The notes beneath the pieces were generated by a model. The model made no database searches. It was given only the letters and a program-made list of their open reading frames with translations, and was not told the origin of the DNA. The position numbers and the translations under genes are program-made. 64,000 bases of DNA from an uncultured Gemmatimonadota bacterium (lineage in GTDB: Bacteria > JAAXHH01), in the NCBI GenBank assembly GCA_951812955.1, contig OX638340.1:96001-160000 (forward strand). The letters run 5' to 3'. This document shows, piece after piece, positions 8,610 to 34,556 of the stretch (the stretch's first letter is position 1; the number at the start of each line of letters is the position of its first letter).

Positions 8610-9488
8610 TCAGGAAGATGCAACCATATTCAGACTGATATCGAGGGCCGGCGCCGAGTGGGTCAGGGCGCCGACCGATATTACGTCGACGCCGGTGTTA
8701 GCGATCGTCCCGATCCGGTCCAACTTGACCGCACCCGAAGCTTCGACCACGATAGGCCGCTCCGCCGTGGCAGCGGCGCGGATGCGTGCGACCGCAACCC
8801 GCATTTCCTCATCGTTCATGTTGTCCAGCATGATCCAGTCCGCCCCGCTGCGTACAGCCTCTTCGACCTGGGCAAGGCCGCACGTCTCCACCTCGACGGC
8901 ATACCGCCTGCCCGAAAGCGCCATGTTCGATCGGCACAAACTAACGGCGGCGGCGATGCCTCCCGCGGCGGCGATGTGATTGTCCTTGATCAGCGCCATG
9001 TCGAAGAGACCGTGGCGGTGATTGTCTCCGCCACCATGCAATACGGCCCTTTTCTCCAGTTCGCGGAGACCGGGCGTAGTCTTTCGGGTATCCACGATGC
9101 GCGCGCCGGTGTTTCGAACGGCATCGACGTATAGCCGGGTCGTCGAGGCGATACCGGAAAGGTGGCGCATGAAGTTCAGCGCCGTGCGCTCACCGGTAAG
9201 CAACGACCGCGTATCGCCCCGTACTTCGGCGATGGGCCGGCCGGATTCCACCGGGTCGCCATCGGCCAGCAACGCCTGGAATTCAAGGCTGGCGTCCACC
9301 TCCCGGTATGTGAGACACGCCGGGAACAGGCCGGATACGATACCGGGCTGCTTCGCCTCGAACCGGGCGCGGGCGAAAGACCCGGGAGCCAGCGTCCACT
9401 CGGTGGTGACATCGCCGTCTCCCACGTCTTCTCGCAAGGCGCGGGTCACGATTTCCTTAAGCGATTCCAGGTCGAACTTCGTGTCCAC
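8610..9488 (-). CDS. nadC: nicotinate-nucleotide pyrophosphorylase (carboxylating) / quinolinate phosphoribosyltransferase
   Basis: 292 aa with LLTGERTALNF, DTRKTTPGLR, ALIKDNHI and MLDNM motifs. Confidence 0.9.
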   Translation of the reverse strand: MDTKFDLESLKEIVTRALREDVGDGDVTTEWTLAPGSFARARFEAKQPGIVSGLFPACLTYREVDASLEFQALLADGDPVESGRPIAEVRGDTRSLLTGERTALNFMRHLSGIASTTRLYVDAVRNTGARIVDTRKTTPGLRELEKRAVLHGGGDNHRHGLFDMALIKDNHIAAAGGIAAAVSLCRSNMALSGRRYAVEVETCGLAQVEEAVRSGADWIMLDNMNDEEMRVAVARIRAAATAERPIVVEASGAVKLDRIGTIANTGVDVISVGALTHSAPALDISLNMVASS

Positions 9489-9503
9489 TTCAGCCTGTCC
9501 TCT

Positions 9504-11075
9504 TTATGGTGTGGCCGGCCCTTCGCCGATCTTCAGGAACGCGCCGGGCAAATGGTCTATGAGATCACCGGCCACCAGGCTGTGCGTACCCATGGCTTCC
9601 GCGCCGAGATCCCCGGCCAGCCCGTGGAGGTAGACCCCCAGACGGGCTGCGTCCCACGCGCCGAGTCCCTGTGCGAGCAAGGCGGCGATGATCCCGGTAA
9701 GCACGTCGCCCGATCCGGCGGTGGCCATGCCCGGATTCCCCGTGGGATTAACGGAAACCTTACCGCAGGGGGAAGCCACCAGCGAGGCGGCGCCCTTGAG
9801 CACGAGGGTCACCTGCAGTGAACCGGCGGTTTGCCTCGCTACCGCGGCGCGGTTCGCCTCGATCTCTTCTACGGCCACGTTCGTCAGCCTGGACAACTCG
9901 AACACATGGGGCGTCATGATCATTTCCGGCCGCGGGCCTGACAGGTCGTCCGCGTAGCCGGAGAAAGCGTTCACGCCGTCGGCGTCGATGACGACCGGCC
10001 GCTCGCTGTTCATCACGACGCGGCGGACCAGGGAAGACGTTTCCTCGTGGCGCGTGAGACCCGGCCCGATGGCCAGCACGTCCGCCCAGGAAAGCAGTGA
10101 TTCGATACCGGGTCCGGCCTCGAGAGAAAGCGATCCCCCGTCGGTTTCGGGCAGGCTTCGGAGCATCACCTCCGTGTGCCTGGCAGCGAGGGCGTCCATG
10201 AGGTTCGCAGGCGATCCGAGCATGACCATGCCCGCGCCGCCGCGCAGGGCCGCACGGGAAGCCAGCGTGGCCGAACCCGCCATACCCGCCGAGCCGGCGA
10301 CGATGGCGACCCGCCCCCTGCTGCCCTTATGGTCATCCGGGAGGTGAACAGGGACCAGGCCGGCCATCTCGCTACGCTCCGGCATGGAGAGGTACAGCCC
10401 TTCCGCTTCTACCGCCCGTTCGGGAAAACCGATGTCCGCCACATCCACGCTGCCGCACCAGGACCGGCCGGGAAAGGTGGCCAGGTCGACCTTCATCAGG
10501 CCGATCGCCAGGGTATGGTCGGCGCGGACGCATGTCCAATCCGCGGTAGGTCGGGACTGCGGATAACCGCAGCCGGGCGCCAGGCCCGACGGGGTGTCGA
10601 CGGAGAGCACGGGGGAAGGGCTGAGGTTGATCTCCGCGATGGCGGATTCGTACGGTACCCGCGGCGGCCCTTTCGTTCCGGTGCCGAGCAGGGCGTCGAT
10701 GATCAGCGCCGGCGTCCGATCGGACAGATCGAGCGGACCGTCAGGCCGGAATGCCGGTGAAAGGCCGGCTTCCTCGAGCCGCTCCAGGTGCCTCGCGGCG
10801 TCACCCGATACAGCGGTTTTGCGGGCCAGCGCGTGGCAGGTGACCCTGGCGCCCCACAGGTGGAGATACCGTGCGGCCACGAAACCGTCACCTCCGTTGT
10901 TTCCTTTTCCGCAAGCCACGGCGATTGCCTTGCCGGCCACGCCGCCAAGCATCTGCTTCGCGGTTTCGGCCACCCGGCAGCCCGCTCTTTCCATGAGTTC
11001 ATATCCGGACAGGCCGTAGTTTTCAATGGTCCGGCGGTCGATCGACCGCATCTGCCGGTTGGTACAGAGTCTCAT
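9504..11075 (-). CDS. nnr: bifunctional NAD(P)H-hydrate repair enzyme (epimerase plus ADP-dependent dehydratase; YjeF N+C)
   Basis: 523 aa. The YjeF_N part carries CGKGNNGGDGFVAARYL and the C-terminal carbohydrate-kinase-like part carries GPGLT...GSGDVLTG. Confidence 0.85.
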   Translation of the reverse strand: MRLCTNRQMRSIDRRTIENYGLSGYELMERAGCRVAETAKQMLGGVAGKAIAVACGKGNNGGDGFVAARYLHLWGARVTCHALARKTAVSGDAARHLERLEEAGLSPAFRPDGPLDLSDRTPALIIDALLGTGTKGPPRVPYESAIAEINLSPSPVLSVDTPSGLAPGCGYPQSRPTADWTCVRADHTLAIGLMKVDLATFPGRSWCGSVDVADIGFPERAVEAEGLYLSMPERSEMAGLVPVHLPDDHKGSRGRVAIVAGSAGMAGSATLASRAALRGGAGMVMLGSPANLMDALAARHTEVMLRSLPETDGGSLSLEAGPGIESLLSWADVLAIGPGLTRHEETSSLVRRVVMNSERPVVIDADGVNAFSGYADDLSGPRPEMIMTPHVFELSRLTNVAVEEIEANRAAVARQTAGSLQVTLVLKGAASLVASPCGKVSVNPTGNPGMATAGSGDVLTGIIAALLAQGLGAWDAARLGVYLHGLAGDLGAEAMGTHSLVAGDLIDHLPGAFLKIGEGPATP

Positions 11076-11101
11076 GATCTGAACTCGCGGTAGGGACCGC
11101 G

Positions 11102-12664
11102 CTATGCCCGGCCCGCGCCGGTCCCGGTGTCGTCGTAAAGTAGCTTGCGGGCTTGAGCCCTGGTCCGAATATCATGAAAAATCTGGATCGTTTCAAGCTT
11201 ATCCAGCATACGGCCGATCTCCGGCCCCTCGGGTATGCCCAGGTCGTCCATGATGTCCGCACCGTTCAATAGCAGGCCCTTATTCCGCACGGTACCGTGA
11301 CGGGTAAACAGCCCGAGCAGTCGGCGTACGGCCTTCGCGATCCTCCCGTACGCCGCGCTTCCTTCGTCCGATCCGTGCGCCAGGGCGAGGAGCGCCGCGC
11401 CGGGCGTATCGCCCTTCGTCCCGCGCAGAATCCGGCAGAGCGCTTCGTCGTCGGGTTCCCGGCGTGCAGCCGCTTCAAGTAGCCTCGCCGCACCGAAGAC
11501 CAGCTGGTGCAGCCCCTGTCTTTCCCGATTGCTCAGTCTCAGCCGGTCGGCCGCGCCTTCGACCGTTTCGAGCGCCGGGGCCGCGCCTTCGACCGTTTCA
11601 AGCGCCGGGGCCGCGCCTTCGACCGTTTCAAGCGCCGGGGCCGCGCCTTCGACCGTTTCAAGCGCCGGGGCCGCGCCGCCGACCCGAATGCGGTGCAACA
11701 CGAGGGAAGCGAAACGCAGGATCCACAGGAAGGACCGCCCGCCCGCGAGTTTCGTGCCGTAACCGGGCAGGTGGGCGTAGAGCCCGTGATCCACCAGGAA
11801 TACGTCCCGGGCGATGAGCCGGTCCGTGCGTTCCAGGGCTCGTGCGAGCATGGGAGTCGCTGGTTCCTTCCAGCCGGATAAGAGGGTCCGGAACACGCCC
11901 GAACGGACCATGGCCGAAACCCGTTCCGCCGTGCTGCGCGCGTCCAGGATCAGGGCCAGTTCGTACAGGACCCGCTCACCCGAAACCCCGCGCAGGTCTT
12001 CATCGCCTGCTTCAATCCATCGCGCGGTCTCGGGCGTTATTTCCAGCTTGAACTGGCCGGCAAGCCGGAAAGCGCGCAATATGCGCAGCGGGTCGTCGCG
12101 GAAGGACGCCTCGGATACCGCCTTGAGCCGCCTGGCCGCGAGGTCCGCAGCGCCGTCCAGGGGGTCGATCAGCGATGGTCTGCCGTCCAGGACGTCCGTC
12201 AGGCGGAAGGCCATGGCGTTGATGGTAAAGTCCCGTTTGCGCAGATCCTCCTTGAGCGTATCGCCCTTAAAGGACGATATATCGATGGTAAACCCGCGCC
12301 GCAACACGACGCGACCGGTTCGGTCCGTGTCATCGAGCGGTACGAAGGGACACCGCAGGCGGGCCGCCAGCTTCCGTCCCAGCTCAAGTCCATCCGCCGC
12401 GAGCGTAAGATCCATATCGTGTATCGTGCGGCCCAGGACGGCGTCCCGCACGGAGCCGCCCACGAGGTAGACTTCGTGGTTCACCTCCCGGCACAGATCG
12501 GTTAGATCCGAGGCGAGTCGCCTGTGGGCCTTTAGCAGGGGCTGGATACAATCGGCAAGGGCAGGCATCACGGAATCGAAGGGGCTTGCGGTCTCGGTTG
12601 GGAGGGAAGCAGGACAAGAGCACGGAGTCACCGGCGAATACCGGCCGGGACACCGGGTGACCAT
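11102..12664 (-). CDS. cca: tRNA nucleotidyltransferase (CCA-adding) / poly(A) polymerase family protein with an internal 10-aa x4 tandem repeat insertion
   Basis: It carries the Pol-beta NT head motifs (VYLVGGSVRDAVLG, RDFTINAMAF). The first ~32 aa in the ORF track look non-coding, so the true start may be the Met of MPALADCIQ. Confidence 0.75.
   Translation of the reverse strand: MVTRCPGRYSPVTPCSCPASLPTETASPFDSVMPALADCIQPLLKAHRRLASDLTDLCREVNHEVYLVGGSVRDAVLGRTIHDMDLTLAADGLELGRKLAARLRCPFVPLDDTDRTGRVVLRRGFTIDISSFKGDTLKEDLRKRDFTINAMAFRLTDVLDGRPSLIDPLDGAADLAARRLKAVSEASFRDDPLRILRAFRLAGQFKLEITPETARWIEAGDEDLRGVSGERVLYELALILDARSTAERVSAMVRSGVFRTLLSGWKEPATPMLARALERTDRLIARDVFLVDHGLYAHLPGYGTKLAGGRSFLWILRFASLVLHRIRVGGAAPALETVEGAAPALETVEGAAPALETVEGAAPALETVEGAADRLRLSNRERQGLHQLVFGAARLLEAAARREPDDEALCRILRGTKGDTPGAALLALAHGSDEGSAAYGRIAKAVRRLLGLFTRHGTVRNKGLLLNGADIMDDLGIPEGPEIGRMLDKLETIQIFHDIRTRAQARKLLYDDTGTGAGRA
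11551..11685. repeat. 30-bp tandem repeat (4 near-identical copies plus a partial one) inside the cca coding sequence
   Basis: The unit ccgcgccttcgaccgtttc[a/g]agcgccgggg occurs at 11551-11580, 11581-11610, 11611-11640 and 11641-11670, with a partial copy to about 11685. On the minus strand it encodes (APALETVEGA)x4 in frame. Confidence 0.9.
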
Positions 12665-12732: not shown

Positions 12733-12816
12733 AGGCGCGTCCCTGTCCATCTTTAAAGTAGGTTACGTAGTTTGATCAGGCCCGTCACAGCAAGGTTTCA
12801 GGAAGCGTTACCACCC

Positions 12817-13551
12817 ATGCAACTCTATCCTGCCATCGACATCAGACACGGGCGATGCGTCCGGCTTTTAAAGGGGAGGCGTGACCGCGAGACGGTGTAT
12901 GGTTCGTCCCCGGCGGAAGTCGCGCTGAGATGGAAATCGATGGGGGCCACCTTTCTGCACGTCGTCGACCTGGACGGCGCCTTCACCGGCGCAGCGGGCA
13001 ACCTGTCGAGTGTCGTCGGCATCCTGGAACGGGCCGATATGCCGGTGCAACTCGGGGGAGGTATCCGAACGCCAGAGGCAGTGGAGAATTGGCTGGACCT
13101 CGGCGTGCGCCGAGTCGTCCTGGGCACGGCGGCCGTGGAAAACCCCGGCCTGGTGAGACATGCGGTAGACCAATGGGGACCGGAACGCATCGTTGTCGGG
13201 ATCGACGCGAAAGCCGGCAGGGCCGCGGTTAACGGATGGACGTCCGGCACATCCTGTTCCTCCCTCGAACTGGCGTCCGCCATGTGGGAGGCAGGGATCC
13301 GCAGGATCGTCTACACGGAGATCGACCGGGACGGTACGATGAACGGTCTCGATACCGCTGCCACGGCGCGCCTGGCCAGGGAAAGCGGCCTGCGTGTCAT
13401 CGCGTCGGGGGGCGTGGCGTCGCTGGACGACCTGGAACGGGCATCGAAATTCGCTGACGACGGCCTGGAAGGCGTGGTCATCGGCAAATCCCTTTATGAA
13501 GGCACGATCGACCTATCGGAAGCCGTGCGGAAATACCAGCCGGCCCCCTGA
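12817..13551 (+). CDS. hisA: ProFAR isomerase (HisA)
   Basis: MQLYPAIDIRHGRCVRL...VDLDGA...GGGIR...IVYTEIDRDGTMNG...VIASGGV. The ATG at 12817 was chosen over the upstream TTG at 12772. Confidence 0.85.
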   Translation: MQLYPAIDIRHGRCVRLLKGRRDRETVYGSSPAEVALRWKSMGATFLHVVDLDGAFTGAAGNLSSVVGILERADMPVQLGGGIRTPEAVENWLDLGVRRVVLGTAAVENPGLVRHAVDQWGPERIVVGIDAKAGRAAVNGWTSGTSCSSLELASAMWEAGIRRIVYTEIDRDGTMNGLDTAATARLARESGLRVIASGGVASLDDLERASKFADDGLEGVVIGKSLYEGTIDLSEAVRKYQPAP

Positions 13552-13574: not shown

Positions 13575-15221
13575 ATGGCGGAAAACACCGTAGAAGTCCT
13601 GATGATCGAAGACAACCCCGTGCACGTGCAGTTGATCCGCCATTTCATGGATTCCAGCCGGTTGAAGACCCGGCTTCACGTGGCGGGGACGCTCCGGGAA
13701 GGCCTGGACCTGCTCGGGAAGGAAACATTCGACGTGGTGCTGCTCGATCTGGTCCTGCCCGACAGCGCCGACCTCGACACCCTACACAGCGTTCGGTCCG
13801 CCGAACCGGACCTGCCGGTCATTATTCTGACCGGACTGGACGACGTGTCCCTGGCCGCCACGGCCGTGGAGTCAGGCGCACAGGACTACATCGTGAAGAC
13901 CCAGGCCAATACCACCATGCTCTCCCGGTCCATCCATTATGCTATCGAACGCGTACGTGCGCGCATGGGGGAATGGGATTCGGCCATGTTCAAACTGGCG
14001 CAGCAGCAGTTTCTGAAGGCGGCGCAGATCATGGGGCTCGACGAGAACATCCGGGAGCGGCTCCTCTTCCCCCAGCGGACCCACATCGTGACGCTCCCGT
14101 TCCGGCGTGACGAATATCACCTCGTGGAGAACGTATTCGGATACCGCGTGCAACACCTGCTCACCATGGGGCCGACCAAGGGCGGCATACGCTACCACGA
14201 GGACGTGAACCTGGGGGAGGTCTCCGCCCTGGCCATGTGGATGACGTGGAAATGCGCGCTGATCAACCTGCCCTTCGGCGGCGCCAAGGGCGGCGTCCGG
14301 ATCGATCCGACCGACCTGTCCCGCCGCGAACTGCAGCGCCTCACCCGCCGTTTCACGTCGGAAATCATCGACATCATCGGACCGGACAAGGACATCCCTG
14401 CTCCCGACATGGGCACGGACGAGCAAGTCATGGCCTGGATCATGGACACCTACAGCCAGCAGGCGGGTTACACGGTACCGGGCGTGGTCACCGGCAAGCC
14501 GGTCGTGCTGGGCGGCTCCCTGGGACGCCGCGAGGCGACCGGACGCGGACTGGTCTACCTGATCGAGGCGGCAGCGGAACACATGGGCATGTCCCTCGAC
14601 GGCGCCGCGGCCGTGGTCCAGGGATTCGGCAATGTCGGCAGCAATACTGCCCGTTTCCTGGATGAGGACGGCGTCAAGGTGGTCGCCGTGAGCGACGTCA
14701 CCACCGGCATCTACAATCCGAACGGCCTGGTGTTGGCGGACGTCTATAAGTACTGCGGGGAAAACCGCTTCCTCACGGGCTATCCCGAGGCCGACGAGGT
14801 AACCAACGAAGAACTGCTCGAGCTGCCCTGCGACATCCTCGCCCCGGCCGCGCTGCAGAACCAGGTCACCAGCGAAAATGCAGACCGGCTGAAGTGCAGA
14901 CTCCTCGCCGAAGGGGCCAACGGGCCCACCACGCTCGAGGCGGACGAGATTCTCACGGAAAAGGACGTGTTCATCCTGCCGGACGTCCTGGGCAACGCCG
15001 GGGGCGTTACGGTCTCCTACTTCGAGTGGGTGCAGGATACACAAAACTACATGTGGACACTCGAGGAGATCAACGGCAGGCTGCACAATATCCTCATCGA
15101 CGCTTTTGAACGGACCATACACCGGGCTTCCGAGCAGAAGATCGATATGCGTACATCGGCACTGATAGAAGGTATCAGCCGGGTGACCCAGGCGAAACTG
15201 CTTCGGGGCATATTTCCGTAA
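13575..15221 (+). CDS. fusion protein: N-terminal response-regulator receiver (REC) domain plus a complete Glu/Leu/Phe/Val (glutamate) dehydrogenase
   Basis: The REC domain (aa ~5-125) has [21 protein letters not shown] (phospho-acceptor Asp), VIILTG and QDYIVK (conserved Lys). The GDH part has [23 protein letters not shown] (catalytic Lys box) and the QGFGNVG dinucleotide-binding motif. Confidence 0.85.
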
Positions 15222-15252
15222 AACCGCGGCAGGCGTCGATGGGAGGCAGGTC

Positions 15253-18216
15253 ATGGATTCGACGGAGATTGATGCGACGTGGGTGAGGATTCTTCAGAAA
15301 ACCGCGTACCTCTGCAGCGGGATCGTCATATCGTGCTCCGTGCTCGTACTTATCGGCTGGCAATTAGATATCGCCGAGCTGCGGGGACTGATCAACCCGG
15401 GCCGGGTTCCCATGAACCCGCTCACGGCCGTGGTCTTTTTGCTGGCGGGGTTTACACTGTGCGCCCTGTTGCCGAGAAACGCCCCTTCCCAACGGAGATG
15501 GGCGGGCTTTGCCGGGGCGGGGCTGCTCATGGCCTTCGGCGCCGCCAAGCTCTTCGGACTGGACATCGGCGGCAGGGGCATCGACGAGTGGCTGTTCACG
15601 GCGTCCCTGGGCGGCAGCCGGATGGCCCCACACACCGCCTTTACCTTCATGCTTGTGGGCCTGGCCCTCCTGCTCCTCGACCTGCGCGGCCCAAGACACT
15701 GGCTGTCCCACGTCTGCGTCATGAACGCCGGGATCATCGCCCTCCTTTCTCTGGCCGGCGCGATATACAGCACGATGGTATTATACCGGGTTTCCGGCGT
15801 GATCCCCATCAGCCTGAATACGGCACTGGGCTTCGGCGTGCTGTGCGTCGGCATATTCTGCGCGCGTCCCCGCCGTGAACCGGCGGCCACGCTGGTCAGC
15901 GCAACGGCCGGCGGTATTATGGCCCGCCGCCTGCTGCCCGCGGCCTTCCTCATTCCCATCATCCTGGGCTGGCTCCAGTTCCAGGGAGAAAGAGCGGGAT
16001 TCTATGGGGTGGAGTTCGGCCATTCGATCTTCGTGGTCTGCAACGTGATCGCCTTCAACATCCTGATCTGGTGGAACGCCCGTTCGATCGGTCAGATCGA
16101 CGCGGAACGCACGCGGATCGCCCACGAACTGCATCGCCAAAACGCCCTCCTGGAAAAGACGGCCCACGACATGGTGCTGTTTCAACAGGAACTCCAGGAA
16201 GCCAAGGAGTCGGCCGAGGAAGCCAGCAGGGCCAAAAGCGAGTTTCTCGCCAACATGAGTCACGAGATCCGCACGCCCATCAACGGGATCACCGGCATGA
16301 CCCAATTGATGCTGAACAGCGACCTGTCGCCCAGGCAACGGGAATTCATGCGGTTGATCGATCAGTCCACGGAATCGCTACAGGGCCTGTTAAACGATAT
16401 CCTGGACTTCTCGAAGATCGAGGCGGGCCGACTGGAGCTCGAATCGATCCCCTTCGAATTGCGGGAGCGCATCGCCAATACGGTGCAGGCCATGTCGATC
16501 CCCGCGTCGGAAAAGGGCCTCGAACTGGCCTACCAGGTATCGCCGGACGTCCCCGATCACCTCGTGGGCGACCCGGGCCGTTTGAGCCAGATTGTGATCA
16601 ACCTGGTCGGGAACGCCATCAAGTTCACGGACTCGGGAGAAGTGGTCCTGACCATGGGGCTGGAATCGGAAACGGAAGAAGCCGTGTCGCTGGTCTGCTC
16701 GGTGGCCGACACCGGAATTGGCATCCCGGAGGACAAGCAGCAACTGATCTTCGACGTCTTCAGCCAGGCGGATAGTTCCATGTCTCGGAAATACGGAGGC
16801 ACGGGGTTGGGACTGGCCATCTGCGCGCAGCTGACATCCATGATGGACGGCCGCATATGGGTCGAAAGCGATGTGGAGCGGGGCAGCACGTTTCATTTTA
16901 CCTTCGGCATGAAGAAACAACTCGACGCGGAGAAGAAGGCCGTGTTGGACGCCGAGCCGCTGTCCGGCCTGCGGGTGCTCGTGGTCGACGACCATTCCAC
17001 CAACCGGCGGTTCCTGGTCGACATGCTGACCGAATGGTCCATGAAACCGACGGAAGCCGGCACCGGCGTGGAAACCCTGGCCGCCCTTTCCGGCGATGAT
17101 GGCGATGCCATTCAACTGGTCCTCCTGGACGAAACCATGCCGGAAATGGAGGAATACGGGCTTGTGCGGGAAATCAACCAGTGCGCAGATGGCCGGAGGC
17201 TCGGCGTCATCCTGCTCGTCTCCGCCGGTCAAAGGGAGGATCCGGATAACGGCAAGACTTTCGGAATCGCCTGTACGGTCAGCAAGCCGGTCAAGCAGTC
17301 CGACCTGCTGGACGCCATCATGGATACCGTGGCGGGCACGCGCGAACCCTCAATTGCAAAACACGCCGACGGCGCGGTTGAAGGGCTCGTTCCCCGCCGT
17401 ATCCTCCTGGCCGAGGACGGGATCGTGAACCAGCGCGTCGCGGTGCTCATGCTGGAGTCCAGGGGCCACGCGGTCACCGTGGTGAACAATGGCAGGGAAG
17501 CGGTCGAAGCGTACAAGAACGGGACCTTCGACCTGATCCTGATGGACGTGCAGATGCCCGAGATGGATGGACTGGAAGCGACCCGGACGATTCGCGGCCT
17601 GGAAACCGGAGACGCCCGCACCCCCATCATTGCGATGACGGCCCACGCCATGCGTGGAGATCGAGAGCGGTGCCTTGAAGCCGGGATGGACGAATACCTG
17701 TCGAAACCCATTCAGGCCCAACTGCTCTACTCCGTGGTGGATAACGTTCCGGTTGAGACCAGGGAGGAATCCGGTGATTCCGCTTCCGAGGCGGCACAGG
17801 GTGAGGTCCTGCCTACCGTGGCGGAAGCCGCGCCTTCTGCGCCGCCGGGGGATCCGGCGGCGATCGACTGGGTAAAGGCCGTAGCGCAATTTGACGGAGA
17901 CGAGCAGGTGGCATCGGAACTGGCCGAGCTTTTCCTGACCGAATGCCAGGGGCTTGAAGCCGGTATGCGCGAAGCGCTCGATGCCCGGAATGGCGCCGAC
18001 CTGAGACGGCATGCCCATACATTGAAAGGTTCAGCCGGGATATTCAAGGCACAGGCTGCCGTGTCCGCTGCACAGCGACTTGAAAAGATGGGCAAAGCCG
18101 GGGATTTTACCGGGGCGGAGGAGGCATGGACGGCGCTGGCCGTCGAACTGGACCGGGTGAAGGCGGTCCTCCGGGAACGGGTTGCCGAGGCGAAACAGCA
18201 ATCTGGTCTCGCTTAG
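15253..18216 (+). CDS. hybrid sensor histidine kinase: ~8-TM N-terminal sensor, coiled coil, HisKA, HATPase_c, two REC domains and a C-terminal HPt
   Basis: The H-box is [12 protein letters not shown] and the G-boxes are GNAIKFT and [12 protein letters not shown]1 has VLVVDDH...LVLLDETMP and REC2 has ILLAEDG...[13 protein letters not shown]. The HPt histidine is in [10 protein letters not shown]. Confidence 0.85.
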
Positions 18217-18325: not shown

Positions 18326-20020
18326 CTACGTTTGCTTTCCGTAGCGCTCCAGATACCTGTTTTCCGCTTCGATCGTCCCGATTAGAAGGATCTCGCACCC
18401 GGTGGCCAGTTTCATCGACGGAGGGGGACTCACGATACTCTCTTTGCCGGTGAAAACGGCCGTGATGTAACAGCCTGTCTCCGGGTAGATCTGAGAATCG
18501 GCGATGGTCTTGCCGGCGAGTTCTCTGGGAAGCCTGACCCGGAAGAAGTTCAACCCTTCCGTGATCATGACGATGTCGTTTCGCTTGAGCAGGTTCAGGA
18601 TGATGTTGGCGCCCATGGAAGCGTAGGACATGACGAAGTCGGCCCCCGCCCGGTGAAGCGCTTCCACGTTCCGTTCCTGTTTCGCCCGCGTGATGATCTG
18701 GATATCCGGCCGCAGCTTGCGGCAATATATCGTGAGATAGATGTTCATGTCGTCTTCATGGGACGTGATGATGACGGTCGGCGCATCCATGAGGCCGGCC
18801 TTCTTCATCGTCTCGATATCCGCGGCGTCACCCAGTACATAGTGTTTTTCGTTCCGGATCCGGTCGGGCTGCTGCTCGATGATCCGGTAGTCCAGCCCTC
18901 GCTCCACGAGCGTGCCGCCCGCCGAGCGTCCCACGCGTCCTCCGCCGATGATGACGATCGGCGGATCGGAAACGTTGTAGATGGCGAAAAGTTCATTATA
19001 GGAGATGATCTGGCTTTCCGTGCCCATGAGCACCAGGATCATCCGTTCGGTCAGCGGCGTGTCGGGCGCGATCACGCGGAACCTGCCCCGCTCCCATACA
19101 CCGACGACCGTGACGCCGGTCAGTTCGCGCAGACGCGTTTCGCGCAGGGTCTTTCCGATGAGAGGGGTATCCACGATACTCGCGTCGGCTACCATAAGAT
19201 CTTCGACGTTTCCGAGTACGTGAGACATGGAATCCACGCTCGAAGCGAGCCGTGCGAGGAGCTGCCCCATCTGCTGCCCCAGCTGGATCACGTGGGTGCA
19301 GCCCGCCAGTTCGAGGATATCCACGGAGTCGGGTGAGTTCGCCGTGGCCAGGATGGGGATGTCTTTATTGGTATTCCGGATCGTGAAGGCAATGCTGGTG
19401 TTCAGGGTATCCTTTCCCGTGGCGACGACGAGTGCGGCCTGGTCCACGTTCGCGTGCCGGTAGGTCTCCGGGTTGTCCAGGTCGCCGTACACGACATTCA
19501 GCCCCCTGTCGTGCAGGATCAGCGATTCATCCAGTTCGGGAATGATGAATACGTATTCGTTTCCGTATTGCTTGAGCCTGGAAGCGAGGGCGCTCGTCAC
19601 CTCGTCGTAATTCGTGATGACCACGTGATCTCGGAAAGTCGGATCCAGCGTGCGCGGCGCACGGGCGATGGAATGCGCGCTGAGCCAGGGGCGATAGATA
19701 AACTCCACGAAGGCGACGGGAAGAACGATGATGAGTGTAGTCAATCCGGTCAGCAGGACGCACATGGAAAAGACGCGGCCCAGGTCGCTGGTGAATATGA
19801 CATCGCCGTACCCGAGCGTGGTCATCGTGGTCAGCGTCCAGTAAAATCCGGTGAACCACGTATGATCCCGTCCTTCCATGGCCTGAAGCTCGTGAAAGAG
19901 GACGGTGTAGACCAGCATCAACAGGAAGAGGAAGATGAAAAACCGATAGAAGAACTTCAGGTTTCCCGATCCGATCGTGGTGCGCAACACACCCAGGTAC
20001 TGTCTGTAGAAGGTCTGCAT
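18326..20020 (-). CDS. 2-TM potassium channel with two RCK (TrkA-N/TrkA-C) regulatory domains (MthK/Kch-like)
   Basis: The selectivity filter TTLGYGD sits between two TM helices. Two Rossmann RCK_N domains (one with IIGGGRVG) are each followed by a TrkA_C domain. Confidence 0.85.
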   Translation of the reverse strand: MQTFYRQYLGVLRTTIGSGNLKFFYRFFIFLFLLMLVYTVLFHELQAMEGRDHTWFTGFYWTLTTMTTLGYGDVIFTSDLGRVFSMCVLLTGLTTLIIVLPVAFVEFIYRPWLSAHSIARAPRTLDPTFRDHVVITNYDEVTSALASRLKQYGNEYVFIIPELDESLILHDRGLNVVYGDLDNPETYRHANVDQAALVVATGKDTLNTSIAFTIRNTNKDIPILATANSPDSVDILELAGCTHVIQLGQQMGQLLARLASSVDSMSHVLGNVEDLMVADASIVDTPLIGKTLRETRLRELTGVTVVGVWERGRFRVIAPDTPLTERMILVLMGTESQIISYNELFAIYNVSDPPIVIIGGGRVGRSAGGTLVERGLDYRIIEQQPDRIRNEKHYVLGDAADIETMKKAGLMDAPTVIITSHEDDMNIYLTIYCRKLRPDIQIITRAKQERNVEALHRAGADFVMSYASMGANIILNLLKRNDIVMITEGLNFFRVRLPRELAGKTIADSQIYPETGCYITAVFTGKESIVSPPPSMKLATGCEILLIGTIEAENRYLERYGKQT

Positions 20021-20261: not shown

Positions 20262-20480
20262 ATACAGCGGCCTGCCCCGGCCCGCTCGGTTCGCCCGGCT
20301 CGTTCAGTCCTGCCGGCTCGCTCGGTTCACCCGGCTCGTCCGGCCCGCCTGGCTCGTTCAGTCCTGCCGGCTCGTCCGGCCCGCCCGGCCCGCCCGGCCC
20401 GCCCGGTTCGCTCGGATCGTTCGGTCCGGCTCGGTTCGTCCGGCCTGCACGGTTCGGTCGGCCCGCTCAGTCCGGCCGGG
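20262..20480. repeat. GC-rich degenerate minisatellite in the 540-bp divergent intergenic region
   Basis: The sequence ctcgttcagtcctgccggctcg occurs twice, at about 20309 and 20353. It is followed by (CCGGCCCG)x4 and further ggctcg/ggttcg variants. Confidence 0.6.
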
Positions 20481-20559: not shown

Positions 20560-21930
20560 ATGAACAACGTCATATCCTATCTCGAGTCCCAACGATCCCA
20601 GGCACTTGACGGCTTGAAGGAGTTCCTCCGCATTCCGAGTGTGAGCACCCATCCCCACCACCGCGAGGACCTGCACCGGTGCGCCAGGTTCGTCGCCGGC
20701 GAACTGGAAGGGATCGGCATGCGCAACGTAGCGGTGAACCCAACGCCCGGCCATCCCATTGTGACGGCGGACTGGCTGGATGCGCCCGGTAAGCCCACCG
20801 TGCTCCTGTACGGCCATTACGACGTCCAGCCGGCGGAACCCATCGAGTTGTGGGAGAGTGATCCCTTTGATCCCGTGGTTCGGGGCGACAACCTGTATGC
20901 TCGCGGATCGACGGACGACAAGGGACAGGTGTGGGTCCACGTGAAGGCCCTGGAAGCCCACCTGCGGGAAAACGGCCGCCTCCCGGTGAACGTCCGCATG
21001 CTGATCGAGGGGGAGGAGGAAGTGTCGAGCGAGAACCTGGAAGCCTACCTGGAGGCCCATAAAGCCGAGCTGGCGGCGGACGTGGTGGTCATTTCCGACA
21101 CGTCCATGCTGGACTACGAGCGGCCCTCCATCGGTTATGCGTTACGCGGCATGGCCTACATGGAGATCCGGATCGAGGGGCCCAATAAGGACCTGCATTC
21201 GGGAGTCTACGGCGGCGCAGTGCCCAACCCCCTCAACGTCCTCTCCGAGATGCTGGGCAAGATGGTGGACCGTGACGGAAGGATCACCGTACCCGGGTTC
21301 TACGATGATGTCTTGCCCTTGAGAGACGAAGAGCGGGAATCACTTGCCGCGCTTTCCTTCGATGAGGAGGGATTCGCCGGAAAGCTGGGCCTGCCGCATG
21401 CCACGGGCGAAAAGGGATACTCGACCGTGGAACGCCTCTGGGCGCGGCCCACGCTGGATGTGAACGGGATGCTTGGGGGATTCACGGGCGAAGGGTCGAA
21501 GACCGTGATTCCTTCGAAGGCCATGGCCAAGGTGAGCATGCGCCTCGTGCCGGACCAGGACCCCGAAAAGATCGTACGGACCTTCACGGACTACGTAAAA
21601 TGCCTTGCGCCACCCTCGGTCAAGGTGGAAGTCATCTGCCACGGCACGGGGAAGCCGGTCCTCACGGCGCGGGATCATCCCGCGGTTACAGCCGCGCACA
21701 AGGCCATCGCCAGGGGCTTCGGCAAGGAACCCGTGTACATCCGGGAAGGCGGCAGCATCCCGGTAGTTGCCATGTTCGAGGAGAAACTCGGCCTTCCGAC
21801 CGTCCTGATGGCCTTCGGCCTGCCAGACTGCGACGCCCATGCGCCGAACGAGAAGTTCCACTTGCCCAATTTCTACCGGGGAATCGACAGCGCGGCCTGG
21901 TTCTACGAGGAATATGGCCGGGTCCGATGA
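20560..21930 (+). CDS. M20-family metallopeptidase (dipeptidase / ArgE-DapE-like)
   Basis: 456 aa with LLYGHYDVQP, GSTDDKG and MLIEGEEE (metal-ligand motifs) and a dimerisation/lid domain. Confidence 0.8.
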   Translation: MNNVISYLESQRSQALDGLKEFLRIPSVSTHPHHREDLHRCARFVAGELEGIGMRNVAVNPTPGHPIVTADWLDAPGKPTVLLYGHYDVQPAEPIELWESDPFDPVVRGDNLYARGSTDDKGQVWVHVKALEAHLRENGRLPVNVRMLIEGEEEVSSENLEAYLEAHKAELAADVVVISDTSMLDYERPSIGYALRGMAYMEIRIEGPNKDLHSGVYGGAVPNPLNVLSEMLGKMVDRDGRITVPGFYDDVLPLRDEERESLAALSFDEEGFAGKLGLPHATGEKGYSTVERLWARPTLDVNGMLGGFTGEGSKTVIPSKAMAKVSMRLVPDQDPEKIVRTFTDYVKCLAPPSVKVEVICHGTGKPVLTARDHPAVTAAHKAIARGFGKEPVYIREGGSIPVVAMFEEKLGLPTVLMAFGLPDCDAHAPNEKFHLPNFYRGIDSAAWFYEEYGRVR

Positions 21931-22084: not shown

Positions 22085-23398
22085 CTAAGCTGACTGTCCG
22101 GCCCTTCCTGCGGCGGCCCGTTGCTCCATGGCGTTCACGGAAGTTGCCACGGCGGCGTCGCCCGTGACGTTTACCGCGGTTCGGCACATGTCGAGTATGC
22201 GGTCGACGCCGAGGATCAATGCGATGCCTGCGGCCGGTACGCCGATGGTCTCGAGGATGATGATCAGCATGATGATGCCCGCGCCGGGTACCGCGGCGGT
22301 GCCGATAGACGCGAGTACTGCCGTGAGGACGATCTGCAGCTGCGCCGTCATATCAAGACCCAGGCCAAGAGCCTGGGCGATGAACACGGCGGCAACGGCC
22401 TGGTAGAGTGCGGTGCCGTCCATGTTGATCGTGGCGCCGAGAGGCAGAACGAAGGAGGAGACCTCCTTGGAGACCCCGAGATTCCGCTCGCTCATCTCCA
22501 TCGTGACGGGCAGCGTGGCCCCGCTGGAACTCGAGGAGAAAGCCAGGAGTTGGGCCGGTGCGATCCCCCTGAAGAAGCGTCCGATCTTCATGTTGGAGAA
22601 GATTTTCAGCAGAAGCGGATAGGTGACGATGCCGTGGACCAGCAGCCCCAGGAGGACTACCAGGCAGTAAAAGCCAAGGGCCCCAAGGAGTTCTCCGACA
22701 GCTGACAGGTCGTCTCTGGCCACCTGGTTGATGGTCTTGGCGATCAGCGCAAATACCCCGATGGGGGCGACGACCATGATCATGTGCACGATCTGGATGA
22801 TGACCGACGTGAGCCCTCCGAAGAAATCAACCAGGGGTTTGCCCTTGTCGGACGGGATCAGTACCAGGGCGATGCCGAAGAGGATGGAGAAGAAAACGAC
22901 CTGAAGCATGCGACCGTTGTTGCTCAGGGCACCGAAGATGTTGTCTGGTGTCATGTCCACGAAGACCTGTAGCGGACCGCGATCTCTGGCCGTTTCGGCC
23001 CGCTCCATGTCCGATTCCGCATCGGACTGGTAGGCCGCCTGCAACTGTTCCTGCAGCCCCTGGGGCACACCGGTACCGGGTTCGAGCAGGTTGACCATGA
23101 CAAGTCCGATGGTCACGGAGACGGTCGTTGTGAGGATGTAAATGGCGATCGTCCTTCCCCCGATGCGCGATAACTTCTTCACGTCCGAGAGGGAAGCGAT
23201 GCCCATGATGAGCGAGCCCAGCACGAGGGGTACGGCGATGACCTTGAGCAGGTTGAGGAAGATGTCGCCGAAGGGCGTGATCCAGTCCTCTGTGAATTGG
23301 CTCCAGCCCATGGCCGCGGAAAGGATTCCGTACAGCCCTCCGAGGATCAGGCCGATGATGATTTTCCAGTGCAGGGGGAGGCGCCACAGGTTCATCAT
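22085..23398 (-). CDS. dicarboxylate/amino acid:cation symporter (DAACS family, GltP/GltT-like)
   Basis: 437 aa, multi-pass, with the characteristic segments FAFSSSSSGATLPVTME and PLGATINMDGTALY. Confidence 0.8.
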   Translation of the reverse strand: MMNLWRLPLHWKIIIGLILGGLYGILSAAMGWSQFTEDWITPFGDIFLNLLKVIAVPLVLGSLIMGIASLSDVKKLSRIGGRTIAIYILTTTVSVTIGLVMVNLLEPGTGVPQGLQEQLQAAYQSDAESDMERAETARDRGPLQVFVDMTPDNIFGALSNNGRMLQVVFFSILFGIALVLIPSDKGKPLVDFFGGLTSVIIQIVHMIMVVAPIGVFALIAKTINQVARDDLSAVGELLGALGFYCLVVLLGLLVHGIVTYPLLLKIFSNMKIGRFFRGIAPAQLLAFSSSSSGATLPVTMEMSERNLGVSKEVSSFVLPLGATINMDGTALYQAVAAVFIAQALGLGLDMTAQLQIVLTAVLASIGTAAVPGAGIIMLIIILETIGVPAAGIALILGVDRILDMCRTAVNVTGDAAVATSVNAMEQRAAAGRAGQSA

Positions 23399-23443: not shown

Positions 23444-24445
23444 CTATACGGGAACGTCGTGGAACAGACTCTGGACTGTCCGAACCAATTTCTCTTCGTC
23501 TGGAATGGTTTCAGGTTCCAGGCCAGGGCTGAAGGGTACGGGTACGTCCATGGCGCCCAGCCGTTTGACGGGGGCGTCGAGGTAATCGAAGGCCTCGTCG
23601 GAAATCCTGGAGGCCAGTTCACCGGTAACTCCGTAGCTCTGGTAGGCTTCGTCGATCACTACGGCGCGGCTGGTCTTCTGCACGGATCGCACAATGGTTT
23701 CCATGTCCAGAGGGGACAGCGTCCTGGGGTCGACCACTTCGACGCTGATCTGTTCCTGCTCCAGCATGTCCGCAGCCTTAAGCGCGGTATGCACCATGCT
23801 CGAAGTGGCCACGATGGACACGTCGCTTCCTTCCCGTTTTATGTCGGCCACACCGAAGGGGATGGTATAGTCGTCGTCATCCGGAACCGGACCCTTCAAG
23901 GCGTACATCATCTTGTCCTCATAGATCACGGTGGGGTTATCGTCGCGAATGGCGGTTTTGAGCAGTCCCTTCAAATCGGCCGGCGTGGAAGGGATGGCCA
24001 CCTTGACGCCGGGTATGTGAGACAGCCAGGCCTGCAGGCTTTGGGAGTGCTGGGCCGCCGAGGAGCGGCCCGCCCCGATGGTGGTCCGTATGGTTAGCGG
24101 CACGCTGGCCTGTCCGCCGGTCATGTAGCACATCTTGGCCGCCTGGTTGACGATCTGGTCCATGGCGATGGTGATGAAGTCGCCGAACATGATCTCGACG
24201 ATGGGCCGCATGCCCGTCAGGGCCGCGCCTACGCCCGCTCCCATGATGCCCGCTTCCGAGATGGGCGTGTCCCGCACCCGGTCGTCGCCGAATTCGTCGA
24301 GCAGTCCCACGGTGACCTTGAAGACTCCGCCGGCCGCGGCGACGTCCTCGCCCATGAAGAAGACGGTTTCGTCCCGCCGCATCTCCTCCGCAATGGCCTC
24401 TCGGACCGCTTCCCCGTAAGTGATTACGCGTTCAGGCGTAGACAT
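23444..24445 (-). CDS. 2-oxoacid (pyruvate/acetoin-type) dehydrogenase E1 component beta subunit
   Basis: 333 aa with a transketolase-like pyrimidine-binding domain (DTPISEAGIMGAGVGAAL) and a C-terminal domain. Confidence 0.85.
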   Translation of the reverse strand: MSTPERVITYGEAVREAIAEEMRRDETVFFMGEDVAAAGGVFKVTVGLLDEFGDDRVRDTPISEAGIMGAGVGAALTGMRPIVEIMFGDFITIAMDQIVNQAAKMCYMTGGQASVPLTIRTTIGAGRSSAAQHSQSLQAWLSHIPGVKVAIPSTPADLKGLLKTAIRDDNPTVIYEDKMMYALKGPVPDDDDYTIPFGVADIKREGSDVSIVATSSMVHTALKAADMLEQEQISVEVVDPRTLSPLDMETIVRSVQKTSRAVVIDEAYQSYGVTGELASRISDEAFDYLDAPVKRLGAMDVPVPFSPGLEPETIPDEEKLVRTVQSLFHDVPV

Positions 24446-25472
24446 GATCGGTCACCTCGTCGGCCACGGGATAGGGGGACTCCTTCGCGAATTCCACGGC
24501 GTCTTCCACCAGCCCGGTGATGGTGGCGTCGATGGTATCCAGTTCCGTTTCGTCCACCATGCCCGCCTTCATCATGCGCCGGGCGAAGCGTGGTATGGGG
24601 TCGCGGGCGAGCCAGGTGTCGGTCTCCTCCTGGGTCCGGTAGGTCTTCTCCGGATCGCCGTCGCCCACGTGATGGCCCCGGTACCGGTAGGTCTTGTTCT
24701 CGATCAGGCAGGGGCCTTCGCCGGCACGGGCCCGCTTTACCATCTCCATCGCGGTCTGGTGTACCGCAACCGCGTCGTTACCGTCCACTACCACGGCCGG
24801 CATGTCGAATCCCGCGGCACGCTCGGCCACGTGTTCCCGGACGGCCGTAACGTCACTGGCCGCGGTGTATTCTCCGTAATGGTTGTTCTCGCAGACGAAT
24901 AGCACGGGCAACGACCAGACGGACGCCAGGTTGGCGGATTCCAGAAAGGCACCCTGGTTGATGGCGCCGTCGCCGAAGAAGCACACGGCCACCTGCCCGC
25001 TGTTGCGCATCTTGCCGCTCAGGGCCGCGCCGGTCGCCATGCCCATCCCGCCTCCCACGATCCCGTTGGCGCCGAGAATCCCGAGACTCATGTCGGCGAT
25101 GTGCATGGTTCCGCCCTTCCCCCGGTTGTAGCCGTCCACCTTGCCCATCATCTCGGCCATCATGCGGTCGACCTTGCCGCCCTTGGCGATCAGGTGGCCG
25201 TGGCCCCGGTGGGTACTGGTCAGGTAGTCGTCGTCGTTCAGAGCGGAACAGATGCCCACTGCCGAGGCCTCCTGCCCGATGTAGAGGTGGGCGAGGCCGC
25301 GCATCAGCCCCTGCGTGTAAATCTCCAGCACGGCTTCCTCGAACCGCCGTATGGTCAGCATTTTTTCGTAGATTTCCCTGCTCAGCGATTCGTTCAGCGG
25401 CAACGTCCCTTCGTCACTGGACGTGGTGATTATTTCCAGGGATTCCGTCATGTCTCGAACGCTCCATGGCAA
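24432..25472 (-). CDS. 2-oxoacid dehydrogenase E1 component alpha subunit (TPP-dependent)
   Basis: 346 aa with the TPP motif GDGAINQGAFLESANLA...NN. It overlaps the beta subunit by 14 bp. Confidence 0.85.
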   Translation of the reverse strand: MPWSVRDMTESLEIITTSSDEGTLPLNESLSREIYEKMLTIRRFEEAVLEIYTQGLMRGLAHLYIGQEASAVGICSALNDDDYLTSTHRGHGHLIAKGGKVDRMMAEMMGKVDGYNRGKGGTMHIADMSLGILGANGIVGGGMGMATGAALSGKMRNSGQVAVCFFGDGAINQGAFLESANLASVWSLPVLFVCENNHYGEYTAASDVTAVREHVAERAAGFDMPAVVVDGNDAVAVHQTAMEMVKRARAGEGPCLIENKTYRYRGHHVGDGDPEKTYRTQEETDTWLARDPIPRFARRMMKAGMVDETELDTIDATITGLVEDAVEFAKESPYPVADEVTDHVYA

Positions 25473-30163: not shown

Positions 30164-30235
30164 CTCCGGGGCCAGGATTCGAACCTGGATAGCCAGAACC
30201 AAAATCTGGTGTCCTGCCAATTGAACGACCCCGGA
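30164..30235 (-). tRNA. tRNA-Gln (anticodon UUG); CCA not encoded
   Basis: Manual fold: acceptor TCCGGGG/CCCCGGA, D-arm GTTC-AATTGGCA-GGAC, anticodon stem CCAGA/TCTGG with loop TTTTGGT, T-arm CCAGG-TTCGAAT-CCTGG. Confidence 0.85.
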
Positions 30236-30590: not shown

Positions 30591-30927
30591 GCTGCCGGCT
30601 CGTCTGGGTGCAGACCCTGATCCTTCGATTCCATCCATGACTGTACCCGAGACCGTTCCGTCGGGTGCTTTGCGCAAACACCGGGCACCTTCCCCACGGC
30701 GCGGCTTCCGACAGTTTCCTGCGCACCGAGATTCCTGCGGTGCGGCTCAATCTACCCGGACCGGTGCCGTATGTCAATCGGAAGTTGACCGCCAGACCGC
30801 GTAGACCGGCGGCCTGCCTTGGCCCTCTGACCGGCGGCCAGCCTGGGCCTGCGATGACCGTACCTGCGTTCCCGTTATGACCGTACCCCGGTTCCCGCGT
30901 TCGCCCGTGTCCCCGGGCGTAAACAGC

Positions 30928-30956
30928 TTGACAGGATCTCTGATCGATTGTAAAAT
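30928..30956 (+). promoter_or_regulatory. sigma70 promoter of the SBP-HK-RR operon
   Basis: TTGACA-17nt-TAAAAT, about 55 bp upstream of the ATG at 31012. Confidence 0.5.
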
Positions 30957-31011
30957 GTTGGTACTCACACGTTTCCCTCCTACACATAGTGGTACTTCAG
31001 GCGGTATTTTC

Positions 31012-34538: not shown

Positions 34539-34556
34539 TCGAAACAGGGGTATTTA

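Follow-up and report, generated by a model that had tools for sequence, protein, structure and literature searches.

INTRODUCTION

Two-component systems are seen mainly as transcription switches, and the enzymatic outputs that have been studied act mostly on signaling molecules or on chemoreceptors. Known response regulators with an enzymatic output include the methylesterase CheB, the diguanylate cyclases PleD and WspR, and the HD-GYP protein RpfG. Glutamate dehydrogenase (GDH) is known to be regulated by allostery, by ADP-ribosylation, and by a system that combines an FHA protein with a Ser/Thr kinase. Here, we analyze the locus at positions 13575-18216 of a 64-kb stretch of contig OX638340.1 from an uncultured Gemmatimonadota bacterium (hereafter, the window; all coordinates refer to the whole of it). 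At this locus, a gene for a receiver (REC) domain fused to a GDH is followed by a gene for a hybrid sensor histidine kinase that ends in a histidine phosphotransfer (HPt) domain. We consider it reasonably probable that the two genes form a self-contained cassette that moves horizontally, and that its phosphorelay ends on the receiver of the GDH and modulates the enzyme.

Like CheB, PleD/WspR, and RpfG, the protein has an N-terminal phosphorylatable REC fused to an enzyme domain. By analogy with these regulators, phosphorylation would be expected to relieve inhibition or to drive oligomerization via the α4-β5-α5 face, which is the best-conserved part of the REC studied here. The outputs of CheB, PleD/WspR, and RpfG are signaling enzymes, engaged in chemoreceptor modification or cyclic di-GMP turnover, whereas the output here is an oxidoreductase of central metabolism that is presumably hexameric. 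In Actinobacteria, the GarA/OdhI-PknG system uses signaling phosphorylation to control GDH and 2-oxoglutarate dehydrogenase post-translationally. That system works with a Ser/Thr kinase and with an inhibitor that is a distinct FHA-domain protein, whereas the system in the window would be a His-Asp relay with its acceptor covalently fused to the enzyme, and we found no FHA or Ser/Thr protein kinase gene linked to the fusion. Unlike the ~50-kDa hexameric GDHs of known structure (1B26, 3AOE/3AOG, and 3K92), with which it shares catalytic and substrate-binding residues, the fusion has an additional 135-residue receiver and an invariant Glu-Trp junction.

The kinase resembles that of the Caulobacter ShkA-ShpA-TacA system, which is also a multi-step His-Asp-His-Asp relay: its HisKA-HATPase-REC-REC core matches ShkA (6QRJ; E = 6.5e−74; query positions 31-526 of a 688-residue fragment). 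Unlike in that system, the HPt domain is fused to the kinase (except at two loci, L009 and L010, described below), and the terminal acceptor is an enzyme and not a σ54 activator. Moreover, the first receiver (REC1) of ShkA is a degenerate pseudo-receiver, whereas REC1 of the window kinase keeps the full set of phospho-site residues (D579/D580, D626, S657, and K678). The HisKA-HATPase-REC-HPt order is also found in BarA/GacS, TorS, and ArcB, and in NCBIfam the kinase scores best against BarA, at 520.9 bits, and TorS, at 461.5 bits. Because these scores fall below the respective equivalog cutoffs of 890 and 676.5, we ruled out that the window kinase is an ortholog of either protein. In contrast to BarA/GacS, TorS, and ArcB, it has a second internal receiver, another type of sensor, and a partner that does not bind DNA.

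The REC-GDH architecture has been cataloged before: in Table 1 of P2CS (Barakat et al. 2009, PMC2716373), the enzyme activities of two-component system proteins include EC 1.4.1.3, glutamate dehydrogenase (NAD(P)+), with the label "Probable." The entry is a catalog item only, with no analysis of partners, conservation, or function. Public annotation calls these proteins either "response regulator" or [quoted passage not shown] We also considered the ammonia-sensing GrtK/GrtR system (PMC12918730, 2026) as a precedent and rejected it, because it is an ordinary system with a DNA-binding output.

RESULTS AND DISCUSSION

A complete receiver joined in frame to a complete glutamate dehydrogenase

The fusion gene and the parts of its product are located as follows.

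13575..15221, + strand: REC::GDH fusion gene, 548 amino acids plus stop, ATG start (list of open reading frames [ORFs]; Pfam REC, ELFV_dehydrog_N, and ELFV_dehydrog)
13575..13970, + strand: receiver domain including the long α5 helix, residues 1-132 (Pfam PF00072 at 8-116; 38-sequence alignment; AlphaFold2 [AF2])
13608-13613, 13746-13748, 13830-13832, and 13896-13898, + strand: receiver phospho-site codons for E12/D13, D58, T86, and K108, respectively (codon check)
13971..13982, + strand: fixed-length junction E133-W134-D135-S136, from REC α5 to the first GDH helix (alignment, AF2)
13983..15218, + strand: full-length GDH of the ~50-kDa class, residues 137-548 (Pfam; 1B26 alignment)
14286-14288 and 14622-14639, + strand: K238 of the GGAKGG box and the GFGNVG motif (residues 350-355), listed with the other key GDH sites K202, K226, D278, and S481 (codon check)

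The Response_reg profile (PF00072) matches residues 8-116 of the fusion protein (E = 2.6e−18; 66.6 bits against a cutoff of 30.2). The first-pass annotation of this DNA had described a complete REC domain with all of its phosphorylation-site residues, and the codons agree: E12/D13 lie in IEDNP, D58 in LLDLVLPD, T86 in ILTG, and K108 in DYIVK. It had also warned that a proper alignment might reveal substitutions of the conserved Asp, Thr, or Lys. In our 38-sequence alignment, D58 and K108 are conserved in 38/38 sequences, position 86 is Thr or Ser in 38/38, and D13 is present in 37/37. Across the same sequences, conservation within the REC domain is highest in β3, β4, α4, and β5 (0.82 to 0.85) and lowest in α1, β2, and α2 (0.45 to 0.57). 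In receivers, α4-β5-α5 is the usual output face, and α1 belongs to the face that determines partner specificity.

The remainder of the protein is a GDH in its entirety. ELFV_dehydrog_N (PF02812) matches residues 166-294 (E = 3.8e−52; 175.8 bits; profile positions 1-128 of 129), and ELFV_dehydrog (PF00208) matches residues 313-545 (E = 1.3e−77; 261.2 bits; profile positions 1-241 of 241). These full-length matches, together with the verified codons of the GGAKGG box and the GFGNVG dinucleotide fold, bear out the earlier description of an in-frame, full-length enzyme. K202, K226, K238, D278, S481, and the GFGNVG motif do not vary in a 27-sequence alignment and are kept in 35 to 36 of the 38 sequences of the larger one, so both alignments show that catalytic and glutamate-binding residues are retained. 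We take K238, K226, D278, K202, and S481 to correspond to K125, K113, D165, K89, and S380 of the Clostridium symbiosum enzyme, which serve in catalysis and in binding of the glutamate γ-carboxyl group. On this basis, we predict that the GDH part of the window protein retains full catalytic function.

Among solved structures, the closest is the Thermotoga maritima GDH 1B26 (E = 3.6e−136; query residues 136-548 against chain residues 4-416). Residues 136-548 match the ~50-kDa GDHs from end to end, with E values from 1e−116 to 1e−136 (1B26, the Thermus chains 3AOE/3AOG, and Bacillus subtilis RocG, 3K92). No solved structure combines a REC with a GDH, as each GDH match in the PDB begins at a query residue numbered at least 132. 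Because the protein scores below the equivalog cutoffs of the named NCBIfam GDH families (GdhB_Halo, 493.9 against 620; GdhA_Arch, 488.6 against 750), the GDH of the fusion represents a distinct subfamily. Outside the clade of the window, the GDH part is 67 to 77% identical to the window protein and the REC part 40 to 57%. Given that the GDH part is far better conserved than the REC, we conclude that catalysis is under strong constraint.

The two parts are joined by a junction in which E133 is conserved in 38/38 sequences and W134 in 37/38. None of the 38 aligned sequences has an insertion or deletion from residue 30 to about residue 275, and the length of the connection between REC core and GDH core is therefore fixed. 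The nearest stand-alone GDH (P0124) has Glu-Cys and not Glu-Trp at the aligned positions. An AF2 model was built for the monomer only, from the 27-sequence family alignment. Its mean pLDDT (predicted local distance difference test) score is 67, with values of ~90 over residues 11-90, 84 to 94 over the NAD domain, and <50 in GDH domain I. With low confidence at the junction, the model places the α5 helix at residues 113-133, a break at 134-136, and the first GDH helix at 137-153.

The fusion recurs in about five phyla

The first-pass annotation had suggested a search for the combined REC and ELFV dehydrogenase architecture, and such a search shows it to be widespread. In a search that covered 5.8 billion protein clusters, PF00072, PF02812, and PF00208 occur together in all of the best 120 clusters, whose proteins are 537 to 555 residues long and 69 to 100% identical. 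The source names among these 120 clusters include Latescibacteria, Gemmatimonadota, Gimesia, Pseudomaricurvus, Pontibacterium, and Amphritea. A tblastn scan of one genome per GTDB species, with the N-terminal 193 residues as the query, yielded 37 loci (L002-L038) in species-representative genomes that match over the REC plus the junction.

The carriers belong to Gemmatimonadota/Latescibacterota, Planctomycetota, Myxococcota, and Alpha- and Gammaproteobacteria, that is, to about five phyla. Members of the window clade are 88 to 92% identical and come from metagenome-assembled genomes (MAGs) labeled Gemmatimonadetes or Latescibacterota. Among Planctomycetota, the fusion is found in Gimesia, Pirellulales, and Bremerella; among Alphaproteobacteria, in Sinorhizobium, Ruegeria, and Leisingera; and among Gammaproteobacteria, in Halomonas, Litchfieldella, Zobellella, and Amphritea. 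Two copies are plasmid-borne, one on the megaplasmid pNGR234b of Sinorhizobium fredii NGR234 and the other on the conjugative plasmid pSfreNXT3a of S. fredii NXT3. There, RefSeq annotates the fusion as a single coding sequence (CDS), WP_104840082.1, followed by a PAS hybrid kinase. Clustering at 50% identity reduces the catalytic family to one representative (P0121), and the nearest stand-alone GDH is 54% identical. These two observations fit a single origin of the fusion followed by horizontal spread.

The same tblastn search over residues 1-193 also matched loci in Asgard MAGs assigned to Promethearchaeota, Hodarchaeota, and Odinarchaeota (L058:255-2500, L061:831-10723, L070:6179-10326, L076:1553-5471, and L081:2394-8852). 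We considered them as distant fusions and rejected them, since they turned out to encode REC-Lrp/AsnC regulators beside separate GDH genes. The regulator has ~295 residues and a REC + HTH_AsnC + AsnC_trans_reg architecture. Its receiver belongs to the same subfamily as that of the fusion (36% identity) and carries the motifs LLDLTLPDS, IILTGLDD, and GAQDYLVK. Near it are one to three stand-alone GDH genes and, at four of the five loci, also a gene for a small histidine kinase. The Asgard regulator may be the transcriptional equivalent of the fusion in bacteria, or the resemblance could be coincidence; because all of the loci come from one lineage, we count them as a single event.

The adjacent gene encodes a complete hybrid kinase

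The kinase gene begins 31 nt after the stop codon of the fusion gene, the same distance as reported by the first-pass annotation. It has the following parts.

15253..18216, + strand: hybrid sensor histidine kinase with C-terminal HPt, 987 amino acids plus stop, ATG start (ORF list, Pfam)
15301..16080, + strand: membrane sensor region with 8 hydrophobic segments, residues 17-276 (Kyte-Doolittle scan)
16231..16908, + strand: HisKA, residues 327-392 (phospho-His H337, 16261-16263), and HATPase_c, residues 439-552 (Pfam; H337 in 30/30 kinases)
16966..17322, + strand: first internal receiver, about residues 572-690, with D579/D580, D626 (17128-17130), S657, and K678 (Pfam Response_reg, in two stretches)
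17401..17739, + strand: second internal receiver, residues 717-829, with E721/D722, D765 (17545-17547), T796, and K818 (best Pfam stretch; all sites in 30/30 kinases)
17917..18165, + strand: HPt domain, residues 889-971, with phospho-His H922 (18016-18018, in HAHTLKGS) (Pfam PF01627, 2e−13)

The earlier reading of this neighbor as a hybrid kinase with HisKA and HATPase domains, two RECs, and an HPt is thus matched by Pfam domains, and all four of its phospho-sites are conserved in 29 to 30 of the 30 kinases. In the first internal receiver, D626 and S657 are present in 30/30 and K678 in 29/30. H922 of the HPt is present in 29/30, the exception being the kinase of L010, where the HPt is a separate ORF. 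The predicted sensor of about eight transmembrane segments corresponds to the 8 hydrophobic segments at residues 17-276. This region of the window kinase has no Pfam match even at E ≤ 10, and beyond the window clade it recurs only in the L019, L021, L023, and L025 kinases. The region may represent an undescribed membrane sensor domain.

The kinase and the fusion are inherited as a pair

To identify neighbors of the fusion, we searched every ORF of the loci with the window proteins by phmmer. In 31 of the 37 genomes, the gene directly next to the fusion, in the same orientation, encodes a hybrid kinase that shares the core of the window kinase (about residues 280-976). This gene is downstream of the fusion in 24 genomes and upstream in 7 (six Planctomycetota and one Nannocystaceae). 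L010 has a kinase without an HPt followed by a separate HPt ORF, and L009 has a stand-alone HPt ORF downstream of the fusion and then the end of the contig. The partner kinase cores score 526 to 765 bits; an unrelated hybrid kinase that also occurs in the Gimesia loci reaches about 230 to 240 bits. The pairwise identities of the partners also co-vary (r = 0.95 for REC and kinase core; r = 0.93 for GDH and kinase core), and they do so when the window clade is left out (0.93 and 0.94, respectively).

No other gene family is common around the pair outside the window clade, as determined by all-against-all BLAST of the flanking ORFs, and, with few exceptions, these ORFs encode no other response regulator; none is conserved beside the pair in any lineage. 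Conserved adjacency and co-inheritance across lineages thus give strong comparative support to the view that the kinase and the REC-GDH protein are a cognate pair. The question of whether a hybrid kinase is conserved beside the fusion, raised by the first-pass annotation, can be answered in the affirmative. Its proposal that the REC-GDH is the terminal acceptor of the relay likewise gains strong comparative support from the kinase core adjacent in 31 of 37 genomes, the one neighbor that is an HPt only, and the absence of a conserved rival regulator.

The sensor heads of the partner kinases vary. They consist of dCache + HAMP + PAS in Gimesia, four PAS domains in Amphritea, PAS_7 in Sinorhizobium, Halomonas, and Zobellella, CHASE + GAF + PAS_7 in Ruegeria, and CHASE in Myxococcales, while the sensor of L019 has a PAS_3 domain plus likeness to the N-terminal membrane region of the window kinase. 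The window kinase itself has a membrane-only sensor. Such swapping of sensors between lineages fits one conserved output with interchangeable inputs.

Two observations concern individual loci. At three loci without a neighboring kinase (L018:7992-9647, L022:7986-9629, and L035:8004-9647, from a Planctomycetaceae MAG, bacterium RI_301, and Bremerella sp. JC770, respectively), we found no alternative partner among the neighbors, which are unrelated (a pyridoxal phosphate-dependent enzyme, a class-III aminotransferase, an M20 peptidase, an HGLS-family protein, and SRAP); the partner kinase of these fusions, if any, is encoded elsewhere. On pSfreNXT3a of S. fredii NXT3 (L082:8796-11643), the annotation splits the kinase downstream of the fusion into two CDSs that overlap, one for a PAS-domain protein (8796-9662) and one for a hybrid histidine kinase (9580-11643). 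The same kinase is one continuous ORF in S. shofinae and S. fredii USDA 205 (L014 and L015), and the NXT3 gene may be frameshifted.

Some relatives keep the receiver and lose the catalytic residues

In a divergent set of REC-GDH proteins (L027:4241-5914, L028:7989-9626, and L033:1485-2933, together with P0122, P0143, P0189, P0232, and P0238), the phospho-site of the receiver and the Glu-Trp junction are kept and catalytic lysines are replaced. K202 is substituted by Leu, Met, Phe, or Val; K226 by Gln or Arg in most of the proteins (it is kept in L027); and K238 by Ala, Phe, Met, or Gln in most (it is kept in L028 and P0122). The GxGxxG motif is also gone from some of them. In L028, from a cultured isolate of Halomonas salifodinae, the fusion is still followed by the hybrid kinase gene, and L033 also still adjoins the kinase. 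Because the catalytic lysines are lost, the receiver in these relatives cannot act on catalysis by its own subunit and must control something else. From their sequences, these proteins look like phospho-regulated pseudo-enzymes.

Proposed mechanism and alternative explanations

We propose that the kinase senses a membrane-associated signal through its 8-segment domain. It would then autophosphorylate on H337 and hand the phosphoryl group to D765 of an internal receiver; D626 would be an additional site, perhaps with a regulatory role. The HPt of the same kinase would next take up the phosphoryl group on H922, and the last acceptor would be D58, in the receiver that is joined to the GDH. Phosphorylation of D58 would alter the α4-β5-α5 face of that receiver, and the change would be transmitted via the rigid, fixed-length α5-Glu-Trp-α1 junction into GDH domain I, which forms the hexamer core by analogy with solved GDHs. 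As a consequence, either the activity of the enzyme or the assembly state that determines its activity would shift. The flux between glutamate and 2-oxoglutarate plus ammonium could thereby be switched post-translationally and within seconds, and not by transcription.

We infer both the route of phosphotransfer and an effect of phosphorylation on catalysis, which could be of either sign. The effect on GDH activity or assembly is suggested by the combination of a conserved α4-β5-α5 face, a variable α1 that co-varies with the kinase, and a rigid junction. We count the plasmid-borne copies of S. fredii, on a conjugative plasmid and a megaplasmid, in support of the mobility of the cassette. More tentatively, and with a confidence that stops a little short of an even chance, we suggest a fuller model: the His-Asp relay directly switches the activity or assembly of a presumably hexameric GDH without transcription, the cassette from sensor to flux spreads between phyla with swappable sensor heads, and the catalytically dead paralogs serve as phospho-controlled regulatory subunits or scaffolds.

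If the proposal is correct, it would provide a fast and direct link from an environmental sensor to an enzyme that joins carbon and nitrogen metabolism, and it would constitute a new mode of GDH regulation. The fixed-length junction would make a good model for receiver signaling into a large oligomeric enzyme, and a modular cassette in which different sensors feed a single output might find use in engineering flux under signal control. The family is present in cultured, genetically tractable bacteria, such as S. fredii NGR234, Halomonas, Zobellella, Ruegeria, and Gimesia maris. The first-pass annotation regarded this kind of control as uncharacterized for GDH. That view stands insofar as our full-text literature searches found no study or biochemical characterization of a REC-GDH fusion; it needs qualification in that the architecture is widespread, occurs in cultured model strains, and was already cataloged in 2009 (PMC2716373). 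The system itself is unstudied as far as the searched literature goes.

This absence of published work is one of several points that weigh against a relay that ends on, and controls, the GDH. Five of the 37 fusions have no kinase within 8 kb (L018, L022, L027, L035, and L011, the last of which is on a short contig). Relatives that lack the catalytic lysines and have intact receivers exist. Either internal receiver could relay the phosphoryl group, and the HPt may also serve distant regulators. Finally, the AF2 monomer is too poor to provide a usable REC-GDH interface or inter-domain geometry.

Because the dead relatives retain intact receivers, explanations that do not involve catalysis keep some plausibility. 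One of them reverses the direction of signaling: the GDH moiety would be an input, in which binding of glutamate, 2-oxoglutarate, or NAD(P)H gates the phosphate on the receiver, so that REC-GDH acts as a metabolite-controlled sink or connector that tunes the kinase toward regulators encoded elsewhere. Phosphotransfer through HPt domains is reversible, a kinase with two intact internal receivers and an HPt could serve several partners, and a ligand-binding or scaffold role would explain better than catalysis why dead relatives have held on to receiver and junction and, in the case of L028 and L033, to the adjacent kinase. We nevertheless consider this explanation unlikely, given that no second response regulator is conserved beside the pair in any lineage, that the main clade, to which the window protein belongs, has invariant catalytic residues, and that its GDH is far more conserved than the receiver.

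Phosphorylation could also govern moonlighting or partner binding instead of catalysis, be it formation of a hetero-hexamer with another GDH subunit, interaction with a transcription or division factor, or localization. There are precedents in B. subtilis RocG-GltC, Caulobacter GdhZ-FtsZ, and Thermus GdhA/GdhB, and the pseudo-enzyme relatives with intact receivers would fit this explanation, as would the close similarity of the fusion to the Thermus chains 3AOE/3AOG (E = 2.5e−132), which we take to form a hetero-hexamer with a regulatory subunit. With the window protein predicted to be fully catalytic and no candidate partner gene conserved nearby, this explanation seems quite improbable to us.

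A purely structural role of the receiver, as a constitutive appendage (a pseudo-receiver or stability domain) beside a kinase that signals elsewhere, would account for the fusions at L018, L022, and L035 that lack a neighboring kinase. Pseudo-receivers typically lose phospho-site residues, whereas all five are kept here in 37 to 38 of 38 sequences; furthermore, the kinase is adjacent in 31 of 37 genomes, and the identities of REC and kinase core co-vary (r = 0.95). We therefore regard this explanation as very improbable. That a sequencing or assembly frameshift joined two separate genes, the concern raised by the first-pass annotation, has practically no likelihood and is refuted by the comparative data, since the in-frame junction is constant in 120 clusters and 37 genomes, including finished isolate genomes and plasmids (NC_012586.1 and NZ_CP024308.1), and RefSeq holds the fusion as the single CDS WP_104840082.1.

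Genes around the pair

The following features surround the two genes in the window.

11102-12664, − strand: PolyA_pol/CCA-adding-enzyme gene
12772..13551, + strand: hisA (TIGR00007, 260.5 bits against a cutoff of 228.95; ORF list)
18326-20020, − strand: TrkA-type K+ channel gene
20560-21930, + strand: M20 peptidase gene
22085-23398: sodium:dicarboxylate (SDF) symporter gene
23444-25472: genes for 2-oxoacid dehydrogenase E1 alpha and beta
27183-28829: methylmalonyl-CoA mutase gene
30164-30235, − strand: tRNA-Gln

The gene immediately upstream of the fusion is hisA, whose true start is probably the ATG at about 12817. The first-pass annotation placed hisA there correctly and gave the gap as 24 bp; we count 23 nt between the hisA stop codon and the ATG of the fusion gene. 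Shine-Dalgarno-like GGAG/GGGAGG sequences precede the ATGs of both the fusion and the kinase genes, and there is no terminator-like site in the gap between hisA and the fusion gene or in that between the fusion and kinase genes. In this window, hisA is probably co-transcribed with the fusion. The synteny of hisA with the fusion is confined to the window's own clade (L001-L006), as judged by phmmer searches of the window proteins against the locus ORFs; we therefore treat the linkage as uninformative about function and reject a functionally meaningful link. Synteny with the CCA-adding enzyme, the TrkA-type channel, and the M20 peptidase is likewise found in the window clade only.

The wider surroundings encode the M20 peptidase, the sodium:dicarboxylate symporter, E1 subunits of a branched-chain 2-oxoacid dehydrogenase, methylmalonyl-CoA mutase, and a peptide-binding protein. 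They lean weakly to a catabolic setting, to which we give little weight because none of these genes is conserved beside the fusion. Farther downstream, a second and conventional signaling unit occupies 30877-35906 on the + strand, with a SBP_bac_5 solute-binding protein, a dCache-HAMP histidine kinase, and an NtrC-type σ54 activator encoded in a row.

The window also contains two tandem repeats. A 30-bp repeat at 11549-11684 (4.5 copies, 97% matches) falls within the CCA-adding-enzyme gene and encodes four in-frame copies of GAAPALETVE. A GC-rich 18-bp/54-bp array at 20276-20468 (about 8 plus 3 copies, 72 to 81% matches) lies within the 540 nt that separate the TrkA-type channel gene from the M20 peptidase gene.

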